Shown: positions 6,535-45,141 of the stretch, in pieces
Position numbering within the stretch: the stretch's first letter is position 1
How the letters are laid out: every line of letters starts with the position of its first letter
DNA from: a virus
Taxonomy: Duplodnaviria > Caudoviricetes
DNA: 64,000 nucleotides
IMG/VR virus record: IMGVR_UViG_3300010163_000014
Location: 1 to 64,000 of that record
Direction: 5' to 3' (one strand)
Made by a program: the position numbers and the translations under genes
Notes under the pieces: model-generated
What the model saw: only the letters and a program-made list of their open reading frames with translations
What the model was told of the DNA's origin: nothing
Databases searched by the model: none

Positions 6535-8046
6535 ATGACTATATCGAGAGAGCTGGTGAATTTTATGACACCTACTATATTTACAACGAAACGGGGACTT
6601 GTGGTATGGCCATATGAAAAAGGTTTATCAAAATCATTAGAGAACTTCACATCATCTTATGATCAGGTATATCATAAGAGGGTTGAGGAAACTGGGTTTA
6701 TAGTTCCAAATTTCATGGGTAAGACTGCATTTATTACCCACGAGCAATCAAAATCATTTTTGATGAATCAATTTCCAAAGCATATTATCACTCTAGTAAA
6801 ACCAAATCGAATTGAGACAATGAATGAGTTTGAGATGAATCCGGATGTGAAATTAAAACCAGTTCAAGAGGAGATATTCAGTCAGATTCTCAATACCAGA
6901 GGATTCAATGATTGGTTTATCAATCTTCAGACTGGTCAGGGAAAGACAATGCTTGGAATATTTCTATCTCAGCATTTTAGAATGAAGACTATGATTACCT
7001 GCTATCTATCTGATATCTTAGATCAATGGGAACTCAGCTATCGAATTAGAACGAATATGAAATGTGATCGGATTATCCATATTGATAAGGGATCGATCAT
7101 TGACTCTTTTATGAATCCGAGATCTACTAGATATCATGTAGAGGACTATGATGTCTTCATGTCAACCCCAGGGTTACTTGCTGGATATTGCAAAGCAAAT
7201 GGATATGAGAAGTTGAATGAGTTCTTCAATAAAGCTGGAATCGGATTACTGATCTTTGATGAAGCACATCGGAATATTGCGAATATTGTCAAGATCAATG
7301 CTGTGACTAATGTCCTTCATACCTTATATCTATCTGCAGATTATGCGCAAGCTCAATATAAGAGAGAAGAGAAGTATTATCGAATCTTTGGAAATCGAAC
7401 TCTCATTGTGAAGCCATCTCAAGAGATGAAACTGACCATGCAGTATACCGATATTATTGTGATAGAGTATAATACTCACCCATCTGAGGCTGAGAAGTTT
7501 GCAATCAATAATGCATATGGTTATAGTGCTCAGAATTATCTCAAGTATCAGATGAATAAGGGTATGATGATTGATGTAATAGATTATACACTTCAATTGA
7601 TCATGTCTAAAGATACTCTAAGTGATAATCGAGTATTAATTCTTCTCAATAACATTGATCCATGTGATAAAATTTATGAGGTTCTTCGTAAGAAGTATAA
7701 GCAGCTACCAGTTGGAAGATTTCATTCCAGAGTACCAGATGATGAGAAGGATATCACATTGGAGTATGGTAGAATCATTGTAGCTACCTATTCCTCATTT
7801 AGTACTGGTAGAGATTTGAGTAAGATTAAATATGTGATTGGCACCAATCAGTCCAATAAGATAGAGGATAATCAATCTGGAGGAAGAGCAAGACCGATGG
7901 AAGATGGTTCCCATGTGAAATATATCATGTTGGTTGATGGTGGATTCGATTATTGTGTGAGAAAACTTAATACAAGACTATCTTATCTAAGAGAGACAAA
8001 GATGAGTACACCTGTTCGTTTCAAATATGAGCCTCAGTCCCAGTAA
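6535..8046 (+). CDS. Superfamily 2 (DEAH) helicase
   Basis: Walker A QTGQGKT, motif II FDEAH, motif III LSA, motif VI QSGGRARP. Confidence 0.9.
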   Translation: MTISRELVNFMTPTIFTTKRGLVVWPYEKGLSKSLENFTSSYDQVYHKRVEETGFIVPNFMGKTAFITHEQSKSFLMNQFPKHIITLVKPNRIETMNEFEMNPDVKLKPVQEEIFSQILNTRGFNDWFINLQTGQGKTMLGIFLSQHFRMKTMITCYLSDILDQWELSYRIRTNMKCDRIIHIDKGSIIDSFMNPRSTRYHVEDYDVFMSTPGLLAGYCKANGYEKLNEFFNKAGIGLLIFDEAHRNIANIVKINAVTNVLHTLYLSADYAQAQYKREEKYYRIFGNRTLIVKPSQEMKLTMQYTDIIVIEYNTHPSEAEKFAINNAYGYSAQNYLKYQMNKGMMIDVIDYTLQLIMSKDTLSDNRVLILLNNIDPCDKIYEVLRKKYKQLPVGRFHSRVPDDEKDITLEYGRIIVATYSSFSTGRDLSKIKYVIGTNQSNKIEDNQSGGRARPMEDGSHVKYIMLVDGGFDYCVRKLNTRLSYLRETKMSTPVRFKYEPQSQ

Positions 8047-10956: not shown

Positions 10957-13629
10957 ATGTGGAAGATTCTACGGCTCTATTTGAAGAATTTTGCTCAGAT
11001 CATGTCTGGATTAGATAAAAAAGAAATCACTCTAGACTTCTCAATCAATGATAAAGTGATCAATATCTTTATTGGTAAGATAGGTTCTGGTAAGACTGCA
11101 ATTCTTGGTCATCTCCAACCATTTGCAACCTATGGAACCCTAGATATCAGAAATCAAGATGATCCGATCATTCCCGGAGAAACTGGTAAAAAAGAGATTT
11201 CATTTCTCCATAATGATATCATATTTGATATTCAGCACGTCTACTCATGGAATAAACATACAGAATCCCATAATATCAAATCTTATATCCAGATGAATGG
11301 AGAAGAACTCAATCCAAATGGAAACACTGGATCCTTTAAAGAGCTGATCAAGATTCATTTTGGCCTTGATCAGAACTATCTGAGAGTTTTAAGACTTGGG
11401 CCCAATGTTGCAAATATCATTGAGATGAGAGCTGCAGAGAGAAAGAGTTTCATCGCATCTCTTAGACCAGATACTGATATCTATCTGATGCTTTATAAGC
11501 ATCTATCTGAAGATCTGAGGAAAGTGAATTCCGCTTTGGCAGTTCTATCCAAGAAATTGGTCAGTCTATCATCTGGACAAGAAGAGAAACTCAAGAGTGA
11601 GTTCGCAATGACAGTTGAAGATCACCGAGAAGTTAGTGCTGAGTATGAGACAGAGAAGACAGCATATTTCATGGATAAAGGCACTTTGTCTAGTATTCTT
11701 CAAAATAGATCTGTTGATGATCTCAAGACTGAGTATACTCACTCATTAGAAACTTTCCAATCATTAAGTAATCAATTAGAAGATCTTAAGAAATCGCAAG
11801 AGCGCATCAATACCTCTATGAGTCTTACTGATGTCATGAGAGAAATCGGTAAAGTTGAGATGACTCTTCAGCAGATCTCTGCACAGGCAACTCTTCTGGA
11901 AGAGGAGATGAAGAATACCAATTTGGAATTGGCAAAGTGGAAAGAGAGAAAAGCTATTTTAGGAGAGAAAGACCAAATGGCAGATCTCGCACAGACTATT
12001 GCCAATCTAGAGGCAAAGTATGAGGACTATAAGAGAAGAGTCTATGGTTTCCATAGTAATCAAAGTTATCGTAGTTTAGCGGCATTCATTGATTCTCTTC
12101 CCATTACAATCATGACGATAGATTCAGTTGCTGGATATCCAACTGATGTAATCTCTCTCTTATATCATTCTGATCATTCTATCCTTAATAAAGCAAGAAT
12201 AGATATTGATCGGCTCAATGGTAGAGTATATAATCTGCAGAGGCAGATGACAAACATTGCATATTCCGCTAAGTATAGAGCTCCATATCCTCTCGTTCGT
12301 CCTCCGTTCTGTCCAACGGTAGAGTGCCCATTCATTCAATCTCATCCTGCTATTATTAGAGAAAAGATGGATGAGATTTCTGATGATAATCCTCTGAGAA
12401 AACTTCAAGATGAAATCGACCGGGTCAACGGCACAATTGCCAGATTAGAAGAATATCCAGTTATCTATCAAAAGATTCAATCATTAAAGAAATCTTGGCC
12501 AGAGATCAGAGATATTATCTCGGGATTCGGAGCTCTTAAGACGGAGAGTCTATATAGCATTTTGACAAATAGTCAGTATCGAATGAATTGGTATGACCAT
12601 GAGAAATTGACAGATGCATTGGAAAAGTGTAAGATACAGGAAGAACTCTATAATCTAGAGCATCAAGTGAAAAGCGCAAAGCAAGAACTGGAAGCCCTAG
12701 AAACAGAATTTGGAGGTAATATTGATGACAAGATCGCAGAAGCAGAGGTACGGCATATTCGACAGAGGTCAGAGTTACAAAGGCTCTCGGAGGAGAAAGC
12801 GAGGCAAAGCGATTTACTGCAGAGCCTACAAGCCGATGCAAGAGCCCTTGAACATTCTACAGAGATTTGCCAAGTTCTTGGAGACACCTCTCGGCAAATC
12901 GAAGAATTACAAAAGGTAATTCGATCTCTTCAAGAGAATATCCAAAAGAGCAACGAGCTCTGTGAGAGTATCAAAAGACGGCAAGAAAAGCTAACTTCCT
13001 ATGAGGATAAACTCAAGAAGTTAGCTGATAAAGGAGAAGAGCTCAGAAGTCAATTAAACGACATCAAGTTTACAAAGATTGAGTTCCAAGCTGTAACAGA
13101 AGCAAAAGATGAATTAAGTATGATACTTGATGCAACCTCTACCAAAGAAGGGATCCCTCTGATACTAGTCGAGGTATTCCTGGAAGATTGTAGAGAGATC
13201 TTAAATGAATTGATCGAAGATGTGTTCTCTGATTCCTTAGAGATCTTACCATCTGATGCTAATGATTTGGAACTCAAGATTCCTTATTCAATCAATGGAT
13301 TCCGAATTGAGGATATCCGAATGGCATCTCAAGGTCAGAGAGCAATTATCTCGATTGCATTGTCATTTGCATTGATTCGACAGAGTGTGTTTGATTATAA
13401 TATCATGCTCTTGGACGAGGTGGATGGTGCACTTTATAAGAGAGATAGAGAAAAATTCATCAATATATTATTCAAACAGTTACAGGCTATTGGAGCGAAT
13501 CAAGTCTTTCTTATTACGCACAATAGTACCTTTGACAATTCCCCCGCGAATATTATTATGACAACAGAGGAGATGATAGATCCTTCACCGAATCATACAA
13601 TCATGCGGCTATACGAATCTGCAGCGTAA
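10957..13629 (+). CDS. sbcC: SbcC/Rad50-like SMC-family ATPase
   Basis: Walker A GKIGSGKT, long coiled coils with central CPTVEC (Zn-hook-like), signature ASQGQR, Walker B LLDEVDG, H-loop LITHN. Confidence 0.9.
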   Translation: MWKILRLYLKNFAQIMSGLDKKEITLDFSINDKVINIFIGKIGSGKTAILGHLQPFATYGTLDIRNQDDPIIPGETGKKEISFLHNDIIFDIQHVYSWNKHTESHNIKSYIQMNGEELNPNGNTGSFKELIKIHFGLDQNYLRVLRLGPNVANIIEMRAAERKSFIASLRPDTDIYLMLYKHLSEDLRKVNSALAVLSKKLVSLSSGQEEKLKSEFAMTVEDHREVSAEYETEKTAYFMDKGTLSSILQNRSVDDLKTEYTHSLETFQSLSNQLEDLKKSQERINTSMSLTDVMREIGKVEMTLQQISAQATLLEEEMKNTNLELAKWKERKAILGEKDQMADLAQTIANLEAKYEDYKRRVYGFHSNQSYRSLAAFIDSLPITIMTIDSVAGYPTDVISLLYHSDHSILNKARIDIDRLNGRVYNLQRQMTNIAYSAKYRAPYPLVRPPFCPTVECPFIQSHPAIIREKMDEISDDNPLRKLQDEIDRVNGTIARLEEYPVIYQKIQSLKKSWPEIRDIISGFGALKTESLYSILTNSQYRMNWYDHEKLTDALEKCKIQEELYNLEHQVKSAKQELEALETEFGGNIDDKIAEAEVRHIRQRSELQRLSEEKARQSDLLQSLQADARALEHSTEICQVLGDTSRQIEELQKVIRSLQENIQKSNELCESIKRRQEKLTSYEDKLKKLADKGEELRSQLNDIKFTKIEFQAVTEAKDELSMILDATSTKEGIPLILVEVFLEDCREILNELIEDVFSDSLEILPSDANDLELKIPYSINGFRIEDIRMASQGQRAIISIALSFALIRQSVFDYNIMLLDEVDGALYKRDREKFINILFKQLQAIGANQVFLITHNSTFDNSPANIIMTTEEMIDPSPNHTIMRLYESAA

Positions 13630-13630
13630 T

Positions 13631-15185
13631 GGTAGAGCATGGAATAGTTTTGTTTGGTACTGTAATAGTAAGGCAACGCATAGTACAGCAAAGGCATTGT
13701 AATGCAACGTACAGTATAGTTCTGCAAAGGTACTGTATGGTTCAGTAATGTACGGGTATGGTAAAGTATTGTGATGGCAAAGCAAAGTATAGTGCCGTAA
13801 AGTCTGGTAAAGGCAATGCATAGCTTGGTAGCGCAATGTAGTGCAGTAGTGAAGTAACGTATCGTGCAGTTTGGGTAAGGTATTGTAATGTGCAGTACGG
13901 TATAGGTAATGCACGGTAACGTACCGTACAGTAATGGCAAGGTAGTGTACAGCTTGGTAAAGGTAAGGTAGAGTGTGGTATTGTCCTGTAATGGTAGTGT
14001 ATGGCAAGGAAATGTATAGGTATAGTAGTGCAGTGTAATGTATTGGCGTGGTAATGTGAAGTCAAGCAATGCAGAGGTATTGTGAGGTGTTGTAAAGTAA
14101 CGCTAAGTTTTGGTGAAGTATGGTGCGGTATGGTGTCGTAGCGGTAGGGTAATGTGAAGCTATGTGAAGTAATAGCATTGTGTAGTGTAGTGATGGTATG
14201 GTAATGTACAGTTCTGTTTGGGTATGGTATTGTGCAGCAGAGTTTGGCGAAGCAATAGCGATGCAGTATATAGCACAGTATAGGCGATGTGTGGTTTTGT
14301 GATGTAACGTAGAGTATTGGTGATGTACAGTAATGTGAAGCAATGGTACAGTGATGTACGGTGACGTATCGTAATGGCGGGGCATTGTTAGGCAGAGCTT
14401 TGTAAAGGTATTGCATGGTATATTATGGTTTGGTATTGTAATGCATTTCTCTATAAAGCTATGGTAAGGCTGGGTGTTGTAAAGTAATGTATCGGTAAAG
14501 TGATGTACAGTGGAGTATTGTATCGGTATAGTGTAGTTCTGTGAAGTAATGGTTTGGCTAGGTATGGTTAGGTAATGCGTAGTAACGGTAAAGCAAAGTA
14601 GTGTTCTTCTGCGTATTGTTTAGCAATAGTGATGTGAAGTGAGGTTTAGTTCCGTATCGTAACGGTGTAGTTTTGTGTAGCGACGTATAGTGCTGGTGTA
14701 GTTTTGTGCAGTCTAGCATCGGTAATGTATTGTATCGAGTTGTGATGCAATGGTATTGCATAGTTCCGTGGCGTAGAGTAGTGCAACGTATAGGTACAGT
14801 AACGTCAAGTGTGGTATTGTAATGCAAAAGTGCAGCTATGTTGAGTAAAGTAATGGTGTGGTATAGCAATGCTATGTGTAGTAACGTAAAAGTAAAGTCT
14901 TGCGATGCAGTGTAACAGTGATGTGTGGTCCAGTCCAGTAATGTTTTGTGATGTAACGGTTATGCGAAGTTACGCGATGTTGAGTATAGGCTATGTGTTG
15001 TAAAGTAGTATAATGTGAGGTATTGGTAAAGTGAAGTTTTGTAACGCATCAGTAAAGTGAAGTGCCGTGCTGCAAGGGTATGGTAGAGTGTGGTGCTGTT
15101 TTGTATTATAGAAGATACAAAGATGTAAGCTTCGTCGAAGTTTTGCAATGGCAATGATAAGTACAGTACGGTAACAGCGAAGCTA
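13631..15185 (+). repeat. Array 1: non-coding 5-nt-periodic (GY+NNN)n array of roughly 48 punctuated units; candidate guide-RNA array
   Basis: Parses as ggt-ag agc-at gga-at agt-tt tgt-tt ggt-ac tgt-aa|t agt-aa ggc-aa...; GY recurs every 5 nt, with a +1 base mostly every 4-8 pentamers; variable positions mostly do not repeat. Confidence 0.9.
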
Positions 15186-15188
15186 GTG

Positions 15189-15245
15189 ATATATCGGTGA
15201 AAAATGAAAAGTTGAACTCATTTTTCACCGATATATTATTTTTTT
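15189..15245 (+). terminator. 19-bp perfect inverted repeat plus T tract closing array 1, overlapping an early-promoter motif
   Basis: ATATATCGGTGAAAAATGA (15189-15207) / TCATTTTTCACCGATATAT (15218-15236), then TATTTTTTT; GATATATTATT at 15230-15240. Confidence 0.75.
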
Positions 15246-15329: not shown

Positions 15330-16238
15330 ATGGCAAGACCGAAGAAGAACACCGAGGTACAGGAAGATCAGGTCATGATGGAACAGACCCCCGAGGCCAC
15401 TCCGGCTCCCACCAAGCGCAAGTATACCCGTCGCAAGACTGCGGATACTACCGCCACGGCCAGCCCGGTTGAGAACGAGGTCGAGACCGAGGATGAAGAG
15501 GTTGCCGCCGCGCCGAAGCGCATTGGCATCGTCGATCCTGGCCGGATCTATGTCCGGTTGTTCTACTTTGAGCCGATCCTGGGCACCTGGCCCGCTGATC
15601 CGGAGATCGCCCGCCGCTTCATCATGAGCAAAGCGCCTGGGGCTGCCACACTGGAGGATGAGATCGCGTCCATGGGCCCCGATGCGGTCGTAGAGCGCGC
15701 ACTGACCATCTTTAATCGCATGGGCGACGGTACCCCGCATCACTGGGACTTTCAGCTTCGGGGCTTTCTGAAGGCTGCGTGGGCTGCCAACAAGAAACGT
15801 CCTGGCTCCATCGCGTCGACGATCAAGGGCGGCAAGAAATTGGTCGATACCGAGATCTTCGCTTATCCCCGTAAGATTGCCCTGCACTTCGACGGCGAGC
15901 TTACTTACTGTGAGAGGCCGTTGCGTGCCTCCACCCCGAAGGGCGAGCGCGTCAATCTGTCCAACTCCGAGCAGGCTCCGGATGGGACCTGGTCCGATGT
16001 CATGTTCGAGTGCCTGGTACCCTCCGATGTGAAGTTCGTTCGGGAGTGCCTGAACTATGGGCGCTACGCCGGCATGGGTCAGTGGAGGAATTCCGGCAAA
16101 GGTCGGTTCTACTGGGAGGAGCACGCCGGTGGCTTCGATGGGCCGGTGATCGGCGGCAACTTCAAGGAATTCTACCCGGGCGGGTACGAGGAGTTCAAGG
16201 CCATGCACCCGGCTTTCAACTGGTCTGATAAGGGTTAA
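15330..16238 (+). CDS. Stand-alone Cas7-like RAMP protein (Vipr-like candidate effector), 302 aa
   Basis: RAMP-like beta1 IYVRLFYFEPILGT, helix motif WDFQLRGFLKAAW, thumb-like ERPLRASTPKGERVNLSNSE, C-terminal Gly-rich loop YGRYAGMGQWRNSGKGRF; AAGGAG RBS; flanked by the two arrays. Confidence 0.8.
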   Translation: MARPKKNTEVQEDQVMMEQTPEATPAPTKRKYTRRKTADTTATASPVENEVETEDEEVAAAPKRIGIVDPGRIYVRLFYFEPILGTWPADPEIARRFIMSKAPGAATLEDEIASMGPDAVVERALTIFNRMGDGTPHHWDFQLRGFLKAAWAANKKRPGSIASTIKGGKKLVDTEIFAYPRKIALHFDGELTYCERPLRASTPKGERVNLSNSEQAPDGTWSDVMFECLVPSDVKFVRECLNYGRYAGMGQWRNSGKGRFYWEEHAGGFDGPVIGGNFKEFYPGGYEEFKAMHPAFNWSDKG

Positions 16239-16250
16239 GGCCAAATAAAG

Positions 16251-16308
16251 AAGGTGGAGAGTTTATGAAAATCTACTGGTTTCATAAACTCTCCACCTTT
16301 TCTTTTTG
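16251..16308. terminator. 20-bp hairpin terminator after the RAMP gene
   Basis: AAGGTGGAGAGTTTATGAAA (16251-16270) / TTTCATAAACTCTCCACCTT (16280-16299) followed by TTCTTTTT. Confidence 0.8.
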
Positions 16309-17378
16309 TATAGCAACAGTGAAGTTCTGCGTTGCTTGGTATCGCAACGGTATAGCGTGGTGGCGTGTTGTATTGCGAAAGCATAGTTGAGTTTAGTATC
16401 GTAATGTGACGTATTTGCGAGGTGCAGTTTTGCGTGGTAGCGCACTGTATAGGCAAGGTAAAGTTAGGCTCAGTAATGTATAGGTAAGGTATAGTGAAGC
16501 AATGTGAAGTTTTGGCGAAGTTTAGTTCCGTATTGCATAGAGATGGTAAAGCAGAGTGAGGTAGCGTAATGTTAAGTAATGGTGAAGTGACGTGTAGTGA
16601 CGTTGTGGTATGGCGAGGTATTGTGATGTGCAGTATCGTAGAGGTAGGGTTCAGTTCGGTAGAGCTATGCGGTGTAATGGTTAAGTGCAGTTCAGCAGGG
16701 TCCGGTAAAGGCATCGTATGGTTCCGTGATGTACGGGTATGGTAAAGTATTGTATTGGTAAAGTGTAGCGCTGTACTGTAAGGGCAAAGCATAGTTCGGT
16801 GCAGTGACGTGTTGCATTAGCAAAGTATCGTTTGGTTCAGCACGGTATTAGTAATGCACGGTAAAGTAGCGCTTAGTATGGGTAAGGTAACGCTGTACTG
16901 TGTAATGGTAGAGCGTAGTTCAGTGATGTAGAGCATAGCAAAGGTAAAGTGCAGTAGCGCGGGGTACAGCTACGGTGAAGTAATGCGTTGTGGTGTAACG
17001 CAAAAGTGCGGTGTGGCTCGGTCGCGTGATGTAAAGGCGTAGTAATGTACAGTGTTGCAGAGGTACGGTGTAGCTAAGTTCAGTGACGTAATAGTAGGGT
17101 AGAGTGTAGTTAAGTACGGTATCAGTAATGTAATATATCGTTTGAGTGTAGTAACGTGATGTAGCGGTAATAGCCTAGTTAAGTTCAGCAATGTAATGGT
17201 ACAGTGTGGTTAAGTGAGGTCTCGCTAAGTAAAGGTGATGCTTAGTGAAGTACCGTATAGTATTGGCATAGTGTTGCTTTGCAACGTGAAGGCGGGGTAG
17301 TGTTAAGTTGAGCGATGCGATGGTTATGCGAAGTATAGTTGAGCATTGGCAAGGTGCAGTAATGCCAAGTGTAGGCAA
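16307..17378 (+). repeat. Array 2: non-coding 5-nt-periodic (GY+NNN)n array of roughly 35 punctuated units; candidate guide-RNA array
   Basis: Same grammar and strand as array 1, e.g. agt-ga agt-tc tgc-gt tgc-tt ggt-at cgc-aa|c ggt-at agc-gt... Confidence 0.9.
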
Positions 17379-17381
17379 ATT

Positions 17382-17504
17382 GACGATTTCACCGTATCAA
17401 CTTAAATATCAGCAATATATTATTTCTATGAGCAGAGATAACCAATAAGTGTTTCCTGCGATATTTTAATGGGCAATATTAGCCCAGAAAGGAAGATCAT
17501 TATG
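17382..17504 (+). promoter_or_regulatory. Promoter plus structured 5' leader, copy A (paralog of 22407-22529)
   Basis: Ungapped 123-nt alignment to the reverse complement of 22407-22529 (102/123 identical by eye); contains AATATATTATT, two hairpins, an RBS and the ATG. Confidence 0.85.
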
Positions 17505-18155
17505 TTCGGTATGTTCGGTAAAAACAAGACTATTCCCCAGGTGCAGATCGACTTCCGTGCCATCGCCCAGATCAAGGGCTATAATCCTGACCCCGCCAAC
17601 GGCCGCGCCTATGTGTTCGTGGTTGAAAAGCTGCAAGCCGAGAAGGTCCTTGGTCTTAACAAGGACCTGGCCATCAGGGTGGCCATCGCCAGCGCTGAGC
17701 TGGATGACGCGCAGGCTATTAGAACTTTTGGCCGTACGGTTGTCCTGATCGACAAGGACACCGCCAAGTTGGCCAAGTGGCCGTGGAGCCGCACTGAAGT
17801 TCTGGCCATGATCGCCGCCGAGAATGCGGTAATCTTCGACCAGCATGAGTGGTCTTCCGTTCCCAACACGGAGGGCTTCGACATCGAGTGGATGCCGCAG
17901 CGTGCCGCGCAGCTTCTGGATGGTGGCGTGCCCTATGGTTGGGGCGCCGCGAGGAAAGGTGCCAACCGGCAGAACAAGGTTCTGGATAAGAGCCTGAAGC
18001 CCATTGTTAAAGGTCTGCACAAGAACTACAAGAAGGGCGTTCAGGCTGCCAGCAGAGGCGACATTCCCGAGCCCGTGGCTGATCCTTTCCAGAATGCCAG
18101 CGACACCGACATCATCGAGGAGGTCATCGAGGTTGAGCCCGACGCCGCCGGATGA
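17502..18155 (+). CDS. Hypothetical protein (217 aa), GC-rich, directly downstream of array 2
   Basis: GAAAGGAAG RBS, ATG at 17502; followed by a terminator at about 18161-18203. Confidence 0.8.
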   Translation: MFGMFGKNKTIPQVQIDFRAIAQIKGYNPDPANGRAYVFVVEKLQAEKVLGLNKDLAIRVAIASAELDDAQAIRTFGRTVVLIDKDTAKLAKWPWSRTEVLAMIAAENAVIFDQHEWSSVPNTEGFDIEWMPQRAAQLLDGGVPYGWGAARKGANRQNKVLDKSLKPIVKGLHKNYKKGVQAASRGDIPEPVADPFQNASDTDIIEEVIEVEPDAAG

Positions 18156-18210
18156 GACATAAAAAGAGATGGGTGGAATAAAAAACCACCCATCTCTTTT
18201 TTGTTTATTT

Positions 18211-19272
18211 TTAGACTACTCGGAGTTTATAGTTCCTATGATAGTCATCAGTTGCTACACCCATCTTCTTATTGATGTTGAATGTCAACTCAGAAAAGTT
18301 GGTGGGCATCGGATAATCGGGAATGATTTCCCCATCCGCGCTCTCAGCTAATAAACCCTGAATATTTTCATCTTCATCAATCAGTAAGACATATTCGACA
18401 CCAAGGCTTTCAAACTCCAGGAACTTATCTCCATCCTCATTACTATCTTCGATTCCATGATCTTCTGGGGCATCTTCTCCAGAATGAAAAACAGGATTCC
18501 CCTCGTCATCTTCTGTGGTAGCACCAGAGATTCCCTCATAACCACCCATAGCAGAGACCATATCACGTCGACCGAGAGAGAATAGACTCCGAATTGCTCC
18601 TCCATTAACTTCATTCGCACCAACGCCTTCTTCTTTAGCCCTGGCAGCTTCTTTGAACTTAATGTCGTATTCATCTTTTCTCAATCGGTTGATTTTATCT
18701 AAGATACTGAGTTGGATATTATGCTGTGTATTCTTAGCTTCTATCATGTCTGATAGTGCTTTGAAGTTACGGGATCTTGCTAGTCGCATCTGGTCGATAT
18801 CCCTTTGCAGAGATACCTTGTCATCATCAATCTCTTTATAGAGACTACGCAATTTCTTTTCAGCCGCTGCATAGCTCTTAGAGATCTCAGAAGTAGAACC
18901 AGTTGCAGATGAATCTCGATGATATTTTCGACCTAGACTAACGAGAGAATCACGGAGTTCAGCATCATCTTCATCCAAATCATCTAGATAAGTATCCAGT
19001 TCATCGGCTGCATTGGATGATGTAAACTCTTCTAGAGCATCATGTCTCTCTACAAGGTCTTCTAAGAAATTTTTTTTGTGACGCTTTTTTCCTTTACGCC
19101 CAGATCCATCATCAGGACCTAAGATATCTCGGAAACCGTCTTGAGATATATCGTGAGATGGCGTGGACTCCGCTTCACCATCTTGAGATAATGAAGGGTC
19201 TTCATACATAGGGTTGTCTAGACCATCGGAATTACTGGACGATAGGAAAGCCAATTTGTCTGCCAATCCCAT
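18211..19272 (-). CDS. Hypothetical acidic coiled-coil protein
   Basis: AAAGGAG RBS before ATG at 19272 (MGLADKL...). Confidence 0.8.
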   Translation of the reverse strand: MGLADKLAFLSSSNSDGLDNPMYEDPSLSQDGEAESTPSHDISQDGFRDILGPDDGSGRKGKKRHKKNFLEDLVERHDALEEFTSSNAADELDTYLDDLDEDDAELRDSLVSLGRKYHRDSSATGSTSEISKSYAAAEKKLRSLYKEIDDDKVSLQRDIDQMRLARSRNFKALSDMIEAKNTQHNIQLSILDKINRLRKDEYDIKFKEAARAKEEGVGANEVNGGAIRSLFSLGRRDMVSAMGGYEGISGATTEDDEGNPVFHSGEDAPEDHGIEDSNEDGDKFLEFESLGVEYVLLIDEDENIQGLLAESADGEIIPDYPMPTNFSELTFNINKKMGVATDDYHRNYKLRVV

Positions 19273-19420
19273 AGAAACACTCCTTTCGGGCATCATCGAT
19301 TAACTGGTCTGTTAATTTTAGTATTAAATTAGGGACCATAGAAACTTGAGGAATACATTATTTCTCTAGAGAAAACCTCAGATTAATCAGATCTGATATA
19401 ATTTAAGGAGTGAAGTACCT

Positions 19421-44298: not shown

Positions 44299-45141
44299 AT
44301 GGGCAGAGAAATTATTCGTGATCATTTTGTACTATGCGGTGACCAGCTCACAGATGTTAAGTCTCGTCTGGCCAGTGCTAAGAAGCAGGGTAAGATGTTC
44401 CATGGTGAGCTGTATGAGAAGACTCATGACAGCTATGGCCATCCCATTCTGCAGTATGTTAATTCCAATACCGTGGTGATCGGCGGCGCCATTTTGGCTT
44501 TGCAGAAGATTTCCGGTATCACCAGTGGTTTTATGCCTCCTGCTCTGAATGAGAAGTATGGTATCAATATCAATGGTGTTCCCACCGGTAATAACCAGAT
44601 CCTGTTGTTCGGCTGTGGTATTGGTGGTGCTGGTCTTGACTTCGGCAATGTTAAGGCTCCTGATATCAAGCAGAATGATGTTGCTGGTGGTCTGATTCCC
44701 ATGCGTTTTGGTGCTGACCTGGTGGGTGATGATGCCCCCAAGTATTTCTTCAAGCATAATAATAACGACGGTACCTTCAGTTGGTATTTGAAGGAGTTTG
44801 ATGAGGGCTCCCAGATCCGTACCCAGTGGAAGAATGCCATTGACTCTGAGGAGGATGGTGCTGAGATCACCGCGGATGTCTCTGAGTCTGATTCCACCGA
44901 CGGTATTGAGAGCTTCCTGGAGGTCAATATCTCCCTGAACTCCAACGATGTCCGTGAGTACTTCGAGGCTCAGGGTAATCTGTCTCAGGCTCGTTATAAT
45001 GCCTTTGGCTTCTACTCTGGCGAGAAGGTCAATGACGAGTATGCGAATGTTCGTCTGTTCTCCACGGTTAACTTCAATAACCGCGATGTCACTGTGAAGA
45101 CAACTTCCAGCTTCGCGTATCGTGTCTATTCTCTAATCTAA
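44299..45141 (+). CDS. Putative baseplate/virion structural protein (280 aa)
   Basis: AAAGGAGG RBS; NTVVIGG...GCGIGG...RLFSTVNF pattern; lies in the structural block. Confidence 0.55.
   Translation: MGREIIRDHFVLCGDQLTDVKSRLASAKKQGKMFHGELYEKTHDSYGHPILQYVNSNTVVIGGAILALQKISGITSGFMPPALNEKYGININGVPTGNNQILLFGCGIGGAGLDFGNVKAPDIKQNDVAGGLIPMRFGADLVGDDAPKYFFKHNNNDGTFSWYLKEFDEGSQIRTQWKNAIDSEEDGAEITADVSESDSTDGIESFLEVNISLNSNDVREYFEAQGNLSQARYNAFGFYSGEKVNDEYANVRLFSTVNFNNRDVTVKTTSSFAYRVYSLI

Follow-up and report, generated by a model that had tools for sequence, protein, structure and literature searches.

Organisation of the cassette

The 64-kb stretch of viral DNA analysed here (the window) belongs to a 90-kb virus record and carries a cassette in which two arrays of 5-nt repeats flank the gene of a stand-alone Cas7-like protein. 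On the plus strand, the elements follow each other in the order array 1, terminator, vipr, hairpin, array 2, accessory ORF and terminator (Table 1), and the cassette has SbcC-like and DNA polymerase genes as neighbours. The candidate promoter of array 1 falls within the 3′ end of the SbcC-like gene and, judged by its match to the consensus, would serve array 1; no promoter was found for array 2, and the strong terminator-like hairpin immediately ahead of it speaks against its being read from upstream. Both arrays are presumably transcribed, as the promoter-like site and the terminators suggest. RNA folding within array 1 was no stronger than that of shuffled sequence, the arrays showed no excess structure, and the Rfam search identified no family inside them, returning only sub-threshold hairpin matches at the terminators. 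A nucleotide search of the phage collection yielded no match. A syntenic relative (L001) was located on a 286,709-bp ENA contig, and, given the size of this 287-kb contig, the 90-kb record may be part of a jumbo phage genome. In L001, a terminator-like hairpin with a T run (6785-6820) also lies between vipr and the downstream array, at the same place as the 16249-16303 hairpin of the window and with a different sequence.

Table 1. Features of the cassette and its borders (positions in the window)
Feature	Position	Strand	Characteristics
SbcC-like gene	10957-13629		upstream neighbour; the cassette begins past its stop
Candidate sigma-70-type promoter, array 1	13532..13559	+	TTGACA, 16 nt, TATTAT; 11/12; consensus scan
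vrRNA array 1 (probable)	13621..15103	+	288 G-Y anchors, 47 junction hexamers, ~48 units of 5n+1 nt
Degenerate 3′ end of array 1	15104..15185	+	pentamer phase partly lost
Intrinsic terminator closing array 1	15182..15245	+	long hairpin, then U run; -29.8 kcal/mol, z = -9.1
vipr, stand-alone Cas7-like RAMP	15330..16238	+	302 aa, GC-rich
Hairpin and U run between vipr and array 2	16249..16303	+	-35.2 kcal/mol, z = -8.9
vrRNA array 2 (probable)	16308..17373	+	206 anchors, 36 junction hexamers, ~37 units
GC-rich accessory ORF, candidate vap	17502..18155	+	217 aa from an ATG after a ribosome-binding site
Terminator hairpin closing the cassette	18160..18205	+	-28.8 kcal/mol, z = -7.1
Next gene past the cassette	18211-19296	minus	bounds the cassette downstream

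The 302-aa ORF had 5533 homologues, mostly of about 197 aa, and no Pfam or PHROG match. The AF2 model, computed from an alignment of 30 homologues, reached a pLDDT above 90 in the core (approximately residues 71-265), with residues 1-70 disordered, and a Foldseek search with this model retrieved type VII Cas7, Csm3 and Cas7-11 (E = 2e-7 to 1e-4). The profile of the protein also matched RAMP glycine-rich loops among PDB sequences, the corresponding loop being invariant in the family (G-x-G-Q-W-R-N-S-G-K-G-R-F). Structure prediction thereby showed a RAMP/Cas7 fold for the modelled product of the ORF at 15330-16238. The N-terminal residues 1-70 (15330-15540) are rich in K, R, E and T and are missing from most of the ~197-aa homologues; in the Vipr of the closest relative (253 aa) this extension is shorter. 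When compared by hhalign with the Vipr of Escherichia phage SUSP1, the window protein gave a full-length, collinear but weak alignment (E = 0.015, probability 3%), and tblastn detected no similarity between the two. In this alignment, G-Q-W-R of the window G-loop corresponds to G-D-W-R of SUSP1, with Q251-W252-R253 placed on D177-W178-R179 and T86 on H17. Both residues reported to read G1 would consequently be replaced in the window protein, which would fit the relaxed base observed before G-Y.

The accessory ORF is confined to this phage lineage, with homologues limited to four proteins in a large database and to L001 and L002 among the fetched loci. It had no Pfam or PHROG match, and its AF2 model was unusable (pLDDT 43). 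The GC content of vipr and the accessory ORF is 48-52%, versus 36-40% for the phage, and that of the variable bases of the arrays (13621-15103 and 16308-17369) is about 28%. The two proteins look imported or deliberately recoded, and the guides agree with the AT-rich composition around them.

Pentamers, junction hexamers and units

The two arrays (1.5 and 1.1 kb, with 288 and 206 pentamers) were parsed as chains of G-Y anchors within 13621-15103 and 16308-17369, with +1 and -1 slips penalised equally. Spacings of 5, 6 and 4 nt were obtained 240, 47 and 0 times in array 1 and 169, 36 and 0 times in array 2; the phase slips of both arrays taken together were +1 in 83 of 83 cases (binomial ~1e-25). 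A second, independent parse with a cyclic pentamer HMM, in which insertions and deletions had equal prior probability, gave 88 insertions versus 3 deletions, the latter being confined to the array ends or to the degenerate stretch 15105-15140. At the degenerate end of array 1, the HMM placed a deletion and clustered insertions at 15111-15175. Across the 494 pentamers, the composition was G (98%) and Y (99%; T 76, C 23), followed by three variable bases.

Every +1 slip sits within a G-Y-A-W-N-R hexamer that precedes G-Y. When the 83 junctions were tabulated, the hexamer read G, Y, A (83%), A or T (54 and 34%), N and a purine (99%; G 77, A 22), followed by G-Y. In the N-G-G-Y of the junction, the first G serves both registers: it is in phase with the old unit and occupies position G1 of the following one. 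The junction hexamers of array 1 extend from 13626-13631 (first) to 15072-15077 (last). The junctions of the two arrays divide them into approximately 85 units of 5n+1 nt, ranging from 21 to 41 nt and mostly of 26, 31 or 36 nt. Expressed in pentamers, the unit length was 4 (5 units), 5 (25), 6 (28), 7 (19), 8 (4) or 11 (a single unit, spanning the degenerate stretch 14420-14460); three further units were short.

The composition of the variable bases depended on the position within the unit. In the first pentamer, n1 was a purine in 93% of the units and, in the last, n1 was A in 82%, with more variation in the mid-unit pentamers. Short handles at both unit ends are suggested by the A-A/W kept in the last pentamer and by the abundance of purines in the first. 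Over the window arrays as a whole, the first base after G-Y was C in 3%, A in 50-56% and G in 25-28%, a bias more pronounced than that at any codon position in the phage's genes. A coding function of the arrays was rejected: stop trinucleotides were not depleted in the variable triplets (18 seen, 21.5 expected), and a codon-like residual signal was absent.

The autocorrelation of G peaked at 5, 10, 21, 26, 31 nt and so on in both arrays. Nowhere else in the 64-kb window was a comparable 5-nt periodicity found, a lone 60-nt segment at 44341 being barely above the 97th-percentile cut-off. A tandem duplication with a 26-nt period was present at 14195-14247, and adjacent units of the window were at most slightly more similar to each other than distant ones (0.401 versus 0.386, P ~0.1).

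These results bear out what a sequence-only reading of positions 13631-15185 had described, namely pentamer arrays punctuated by an extra base, slips of +1 only, the junction consensus GY-A-(A/T)-N-(G/A)-GY and units of about 21-41 nt; the same punctuation was seen in the second array, which lies at 16308-17369, beyond those positions. Its count of roughly 48 units in array 1 agrees with the 48 given by the 47 junctions, its count of 35 units in array 2 was close to the ~37 obtained from 36 junctions, and it had placed the degenerate stretches (14420-14460 and 15105-15140) correctly.

Related loci, unit turnover and target searches

A total of 82 related loci were fetched. They comprised L001 and L002, which are syntenic with the window, encode Vipr proteins 64-66% identical to that of the window and carry arrays in the same two places, as well as 80 IMG/VR loci with Vipr identities of 42-53%. 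The G-Y detector identified an array in 34 of the 82 loci; in these, the array lies beside vipr on the same strand, nearly always just downstream. With relaxed anchors, the spacings were 5 nt (2515), 6 nt (439), 4 nt (23) and other (8). The 183 non-redundant junctions of the relatives read G, C (87%), A (70%), A (78%), N, G (97%), followed by G-Y, and their modal unit length was 6 pentamers. The short arrays of the relatives measure about 130 nt and hold 3-4 junctions. In four loci (L008 4768-4896, L060 4608-4706, L079 4666-4852 and L081 3726-3836), G-Y periodicity with +1 junctions was observed on both strands.

Near-identical unit pairs (n = 220) were used to compare rates of change. The junction G differed at 0.018 and the last G-Y at 0-0.009, versus 0.055-0.09 for the variable bases of ordinary pentamers. 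These substitution rates show purifying selection acting on G-Y and the junction; in evolutionary terms, the punctuation is functional.

Differences between related arrays involved whole units. A 52-nt indel, corresponding to two 26-nt units, is all that distinguishes L001 from L002; tandems of 21 and 26 nt occur in L001/L002, including a 21-nt unit in three tandem copies in L001. When the units of 13 related IMG/VR arrays were numbered in the manner of CRISPR spacers, units 5, 6, 7 and 8 were common, units 28 and 41 were inserted between them in some phages, and the positions of units 22 and 14 differed among phages, so that whole units had been gained, lost or moved around shared ones. Because insertion, loss and movement affected whole units, the junctions delimit modules. 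The right ends of homology blocks fell in the first post-junction pentamer in 32 of 89 cases, versus 19 of 190 for ends due to point mutation, these counts being non-independent since the loci are related. Recombination at the common junction motif could alone produce the unit-wise shuffling. Essentially no units were common to the window arrays and those of L001/L002, which indicates that the content turns over fast while the grammar is kept.

Under 11-12 pairing rules, and with the arrays masked, targets were sought locally on both strands of the phage's own 90 kb and of the 82 related loci (1.5 Mb in all). No excess of matches was found; only period 5 was enriched, reflecting array-to-array homology. 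The 16-base code of the unit at 14918 had one match in IMG/VR, a chance-level result, which was in frame, did not extend into the neighbouring units and fell in a gene of no known family. The same code had more than 120 unrelated matches in metagenomes, again at chance level. A correlation (r = 0.81) was seen between the n1n2 frequencies and codon positions 1-2 in the genes of the phage, which is compatible with, though no proof of, the published pairing rule. As no target was found for any unit, the guide role is assigned from family membership. Units of 4-8 pentamers specify no more than 8-16 guide bases and fall short of the 9-16 repeats found in characterised vrRNAs, a point against reading them as guides.

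Nature of the arrays and comparison with known systems

VIPR systems are CRISPR-related and were first described in 2026; the characterised ones use long guides capped by a structured tail. Such a system combines an ancestral RAMP that stands alone (Vipr) with an accessory gene and with vrRNAs; the latter are built of GGY/NN pentamers, in which NN pairs with DNA so that every third target base is skipped, and in the characterised members the repeats correspond to RNAs that co-purify with Vipr (10.64898/2026.04.26.720920). Alternative repeats (NNNGG, YNNNG and NNNNG) have been listed (10.64898/2026.04.26.720920), and WGT/NN motifs have been reported (10.64898/2026.10.21.760802). Structurally, Vipr assembles into a helical filament, each protomer taking one repeat; G1 and G2 are gripped by the same protomer, Y sits in a purine-excluding pocket of the following one, and a turn of the binary filament comprises six subunits (10.64898/2026.04.26.720927). 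The cryo-EM preprint mentions vrRNAs of up to 30 repeats. The legend of fig. S18 in the first of these preprints refers to "staggered vrRNA arrays", a layout stated there to be unconfirmed by small-RNA sequencing (10.64898/2026.04.26.720920).

Since the arrays of the window flank a stand-alone Cas7-like gene in a virus record, the locus was assigned to the VIPR systems. Several elements expected of such a system were present: a RAMP with an RRM core (AF2/Foldseek) and a glycine-rich loop (loop profile), 494 tandem 5-nt repeats beside vipr on the same strand, and a non-CRISPR viral context, in which TRF revealed no CRISPR-like repeats. The published alternative repeats and the WGT/NN motifs place the window system among those with a relaxed G1. 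Successive guides one base off register, as the legend of fig. S18 implies for staggered arrays, correspond to the 83 of 83 slips of +1 at N-G-G-Y. In our judgement, the two arrays probably encode the guide RNAs (vrRNAs) of a VIPR system carried by the phage, of this tail-less, staggered type, with the junction serving as a stop/start mark. The punctuated layout is, in that case, already known to the field, and the locus is an unusually large example of it, with ~85 units.

Under this interpretation, each pentamer would be read as n3-G-Y plus the guide bases n1 and n2 and bound by one Vipr protomer, and a guide unit would comprise about six in-phase pentamers (range 4-8). The junction G would fall where the old register expects its G (hexamer position 5); the G that follows would present a purine to a pyrimidine-only pocket, so that the old register would stop, and the same G-G-Y, one base downstream, would offer the canonical motif from which the next unit would start. 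The junction would hence act as a stop/start mark between independent guide modules. Such a mark would account for the +1 sign of the slips, the G/A junction base and the recurrence of G-Y-A-A/W-N-G-G-Y every ~31 nt, and it fits the legend on staggered arrays as far as that legend goes. Protomer binding and the role of the mark are transferred here from the published filament, and the argument concerning the pocket draws on the weak alignment to SUSP1 Vipr (E = 0.015, probability 3%). The mean of ~6 pentamers corresponds to one full turn of the binary filament, an equality that may be fortuitous.

This equality also speaks for a different explanation, in which the junction is a hinge within one long guide instead of a boundary, and a continuous Vipr filament, covering the entire array or long parts of it, accommodates a bulge about once per helical turn. 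The mean interval between junctions (5.7-6.1 pentamers) matches the six-subunit turn, the G anchors fit a 5.17-nt lattice within ~1-2.5 nt, long vrRNAs are on record in the cryo-EM work (up to 30 repeats), and the ~130-nt arrays of the relatives, with their 3-4 junctions, match a single vrRNA in size. However, individual intervals spread over 3-9 as if each were drawn independently, and shuffling their order gave an equal cumulative drift (P = 0.75 and 0.76), so that there is no long-range phase lock and a helical lattice fitted at 5.17 nt was dropped. Moreover, nothing in a helical polymer sets one subunit per turn apart from the others, the extra base comes with a strict junction sequence instead of being arbitrary, and units move independently among related arrays. 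We therefore consider a hinge improbable.

Still less probable is an element acting at the DNA level, with a protein occupying double-stranded DNA at each half helical turn (2 x 5.17 = 10.3 bp) and no RNA involved. The non-integer mean period of 5.16-5.18 nt and the long-range autocorrelation speak for such an element, but the long-range periodic signal arises because unit lengths are regular, and this regularity explains it fully. In addition, the motif lies on the vipr strand only in nearly all loci, a promoter-like site and terminators bracket the arrays, and the repeats of the characterised family members are RNAs that co-purify with Vipr (10.64898/2026.04.26.720920). Finally, the short tandem repeats in a non-coding stretch and the unit-length tandem duplications (14195-14247; L001/L002) recall a decaying pentanucleotide satellite whose 6-nt spacings would be functionless scars of replication slippage, a possibility that is next to nil: the slip statistics exclude it (all 83 slips are +1 and none -1, at one consensus), and so does conservation, in that the same motif and spacing recur in phages with Vipr only 42-55% identical, G-Y and the junction are under purifying selection while the variable bases are wholly replaced from one close relative to another, and the arrays obligately adjoin the RAMP gene.

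The sequence-only reading had likewise argued against slippage decay and for a hexamer that marks guide boundaries, as a processing site or as a register break capping the protein filament. It found partial support: the hexamer is a selected mark delimiting units and no product of slippage decay, and it may in addition be a site of RNA processing or filament capping. The hexamer is conserved in sequence and spacing across distantly related phage loci, related arrays differ by whole junction-bounded units, the junction G changes about four times less than the variable bases, and the composition tracks the position within the unit. Its likening of the hexamer to a CRISPR repeat holds for the evolutionary behaviour; the layout itself is most likely the published "staggered vrRNA array".

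Beyond the stop/start mark, a more specific possibility, which we advance tentatively and regard as rather doubtful, is that N-G-G-Y constitutes a protein-read code with which one Cas7-like protein cuts, or segments in uncut form, a 1.5-kb tail-less transcript into one-turn RNPs of about six protomers, dispensing with Cas6, a ribozyme or a structured handle. If this were true, the phage would deploy ~85 minimal guides, perhaps strung along a single RNA like beads, by a self-measuring mode of processing that has not yet been demonstrated in any VIPR or CRISPR system.

With the stop/start mark as the probable reading, the locus would represent a second way of delimiting guides, by a one-base register shift at a mark of ~8 nt, the outcome of which is a very dense array of very short guides (~85 in 2.6 kb). 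The rules measured here (all shifts +1; G-Y-A-A/W-N-G ahead of G-Y; units of 5n+1 nt, most often 6 pentamers; shuffling of whole units among relatives) provide constructs for testing the start, stop and sizing of Vipr filaments, as well as a design basis for compact multiplexed guide arrays.

Among the known systems, the staggered VIPR arrays are the most similar to the window. As far as the legend of fig. S18 describes them (10.64898/2026.04.26.720920), they share a stand-alone phage Vipr RAMP, 5-nt repeats on the same strand with a fixed G-Y and a relaxed G1, guides that are not separated by tails or ribozymes, and neighbouring guides offset by one base, the end of each marking where the following one starts. 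The window arrays are larger, at 288 + 206 pentamers and ~85 units, whereas the vrRNAs in the papers have 9-16 repeats, with up to 30 on record. The present analysis also puts numbers on the junction consensus, the 5n+1 rule (mode 6), the dependence of composition on position and the shuffling by units.

The type II VIPR systems (SUSP1 and a Pseudomonas fulva prophage) have in common with the window the Vipr fold, the W-R pair of the G-loop, the phage context, one pentamer per protomer and an accessory gene downstream. SUSP1 differs in its strict GGY/NN pentamers and in a conserved pseudoknot tail of ~50 nt on each vrRNA, whereas the window has no tail, a relaxed G1 and units half as long. The 9-16 GGY/NN repeats with a structured 3′ tail that define type II are not found in the window, where units abut directly. 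When SUSP1 was subjected to the same parse as a control (NC_028808, L084 27624-29235, minus strand), four vrRNAs of 12-15 pentamers were recovered, and all 50 of 50 spacings equalled 5 with no +1 slip; the punctuation is therefore not a general feature of VIPR. All four SUSP1 tracts end in an in-phase G-G-G or G-G-A, followed by the conserved tail. The end of a SUSP1 tract thus carries a purine where Y is expected, the same signal as at the window junction.

Class 1 CRISPR systems resemble the window in that a Cas7-type RAMP gauges RNA by a constant step and a short recurring mark lies between variable modules, which are gained, lost and reordered as wholes. Unlike CRISPR, the window has a step of 5 nt rather than 6 and a degenerate mark of only ~8 nt, with no direct repeat of at least 20 nt. 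Neither the ~23-50-nt direct repeats nor the adaptation genes of a CRISPR array were present, and no cas1, cas2, cas6 or other cas genes were found near the window arrays. The arrays appear to have grown by unit duplication and recombination rather than by the polarised acquisition of spacers.
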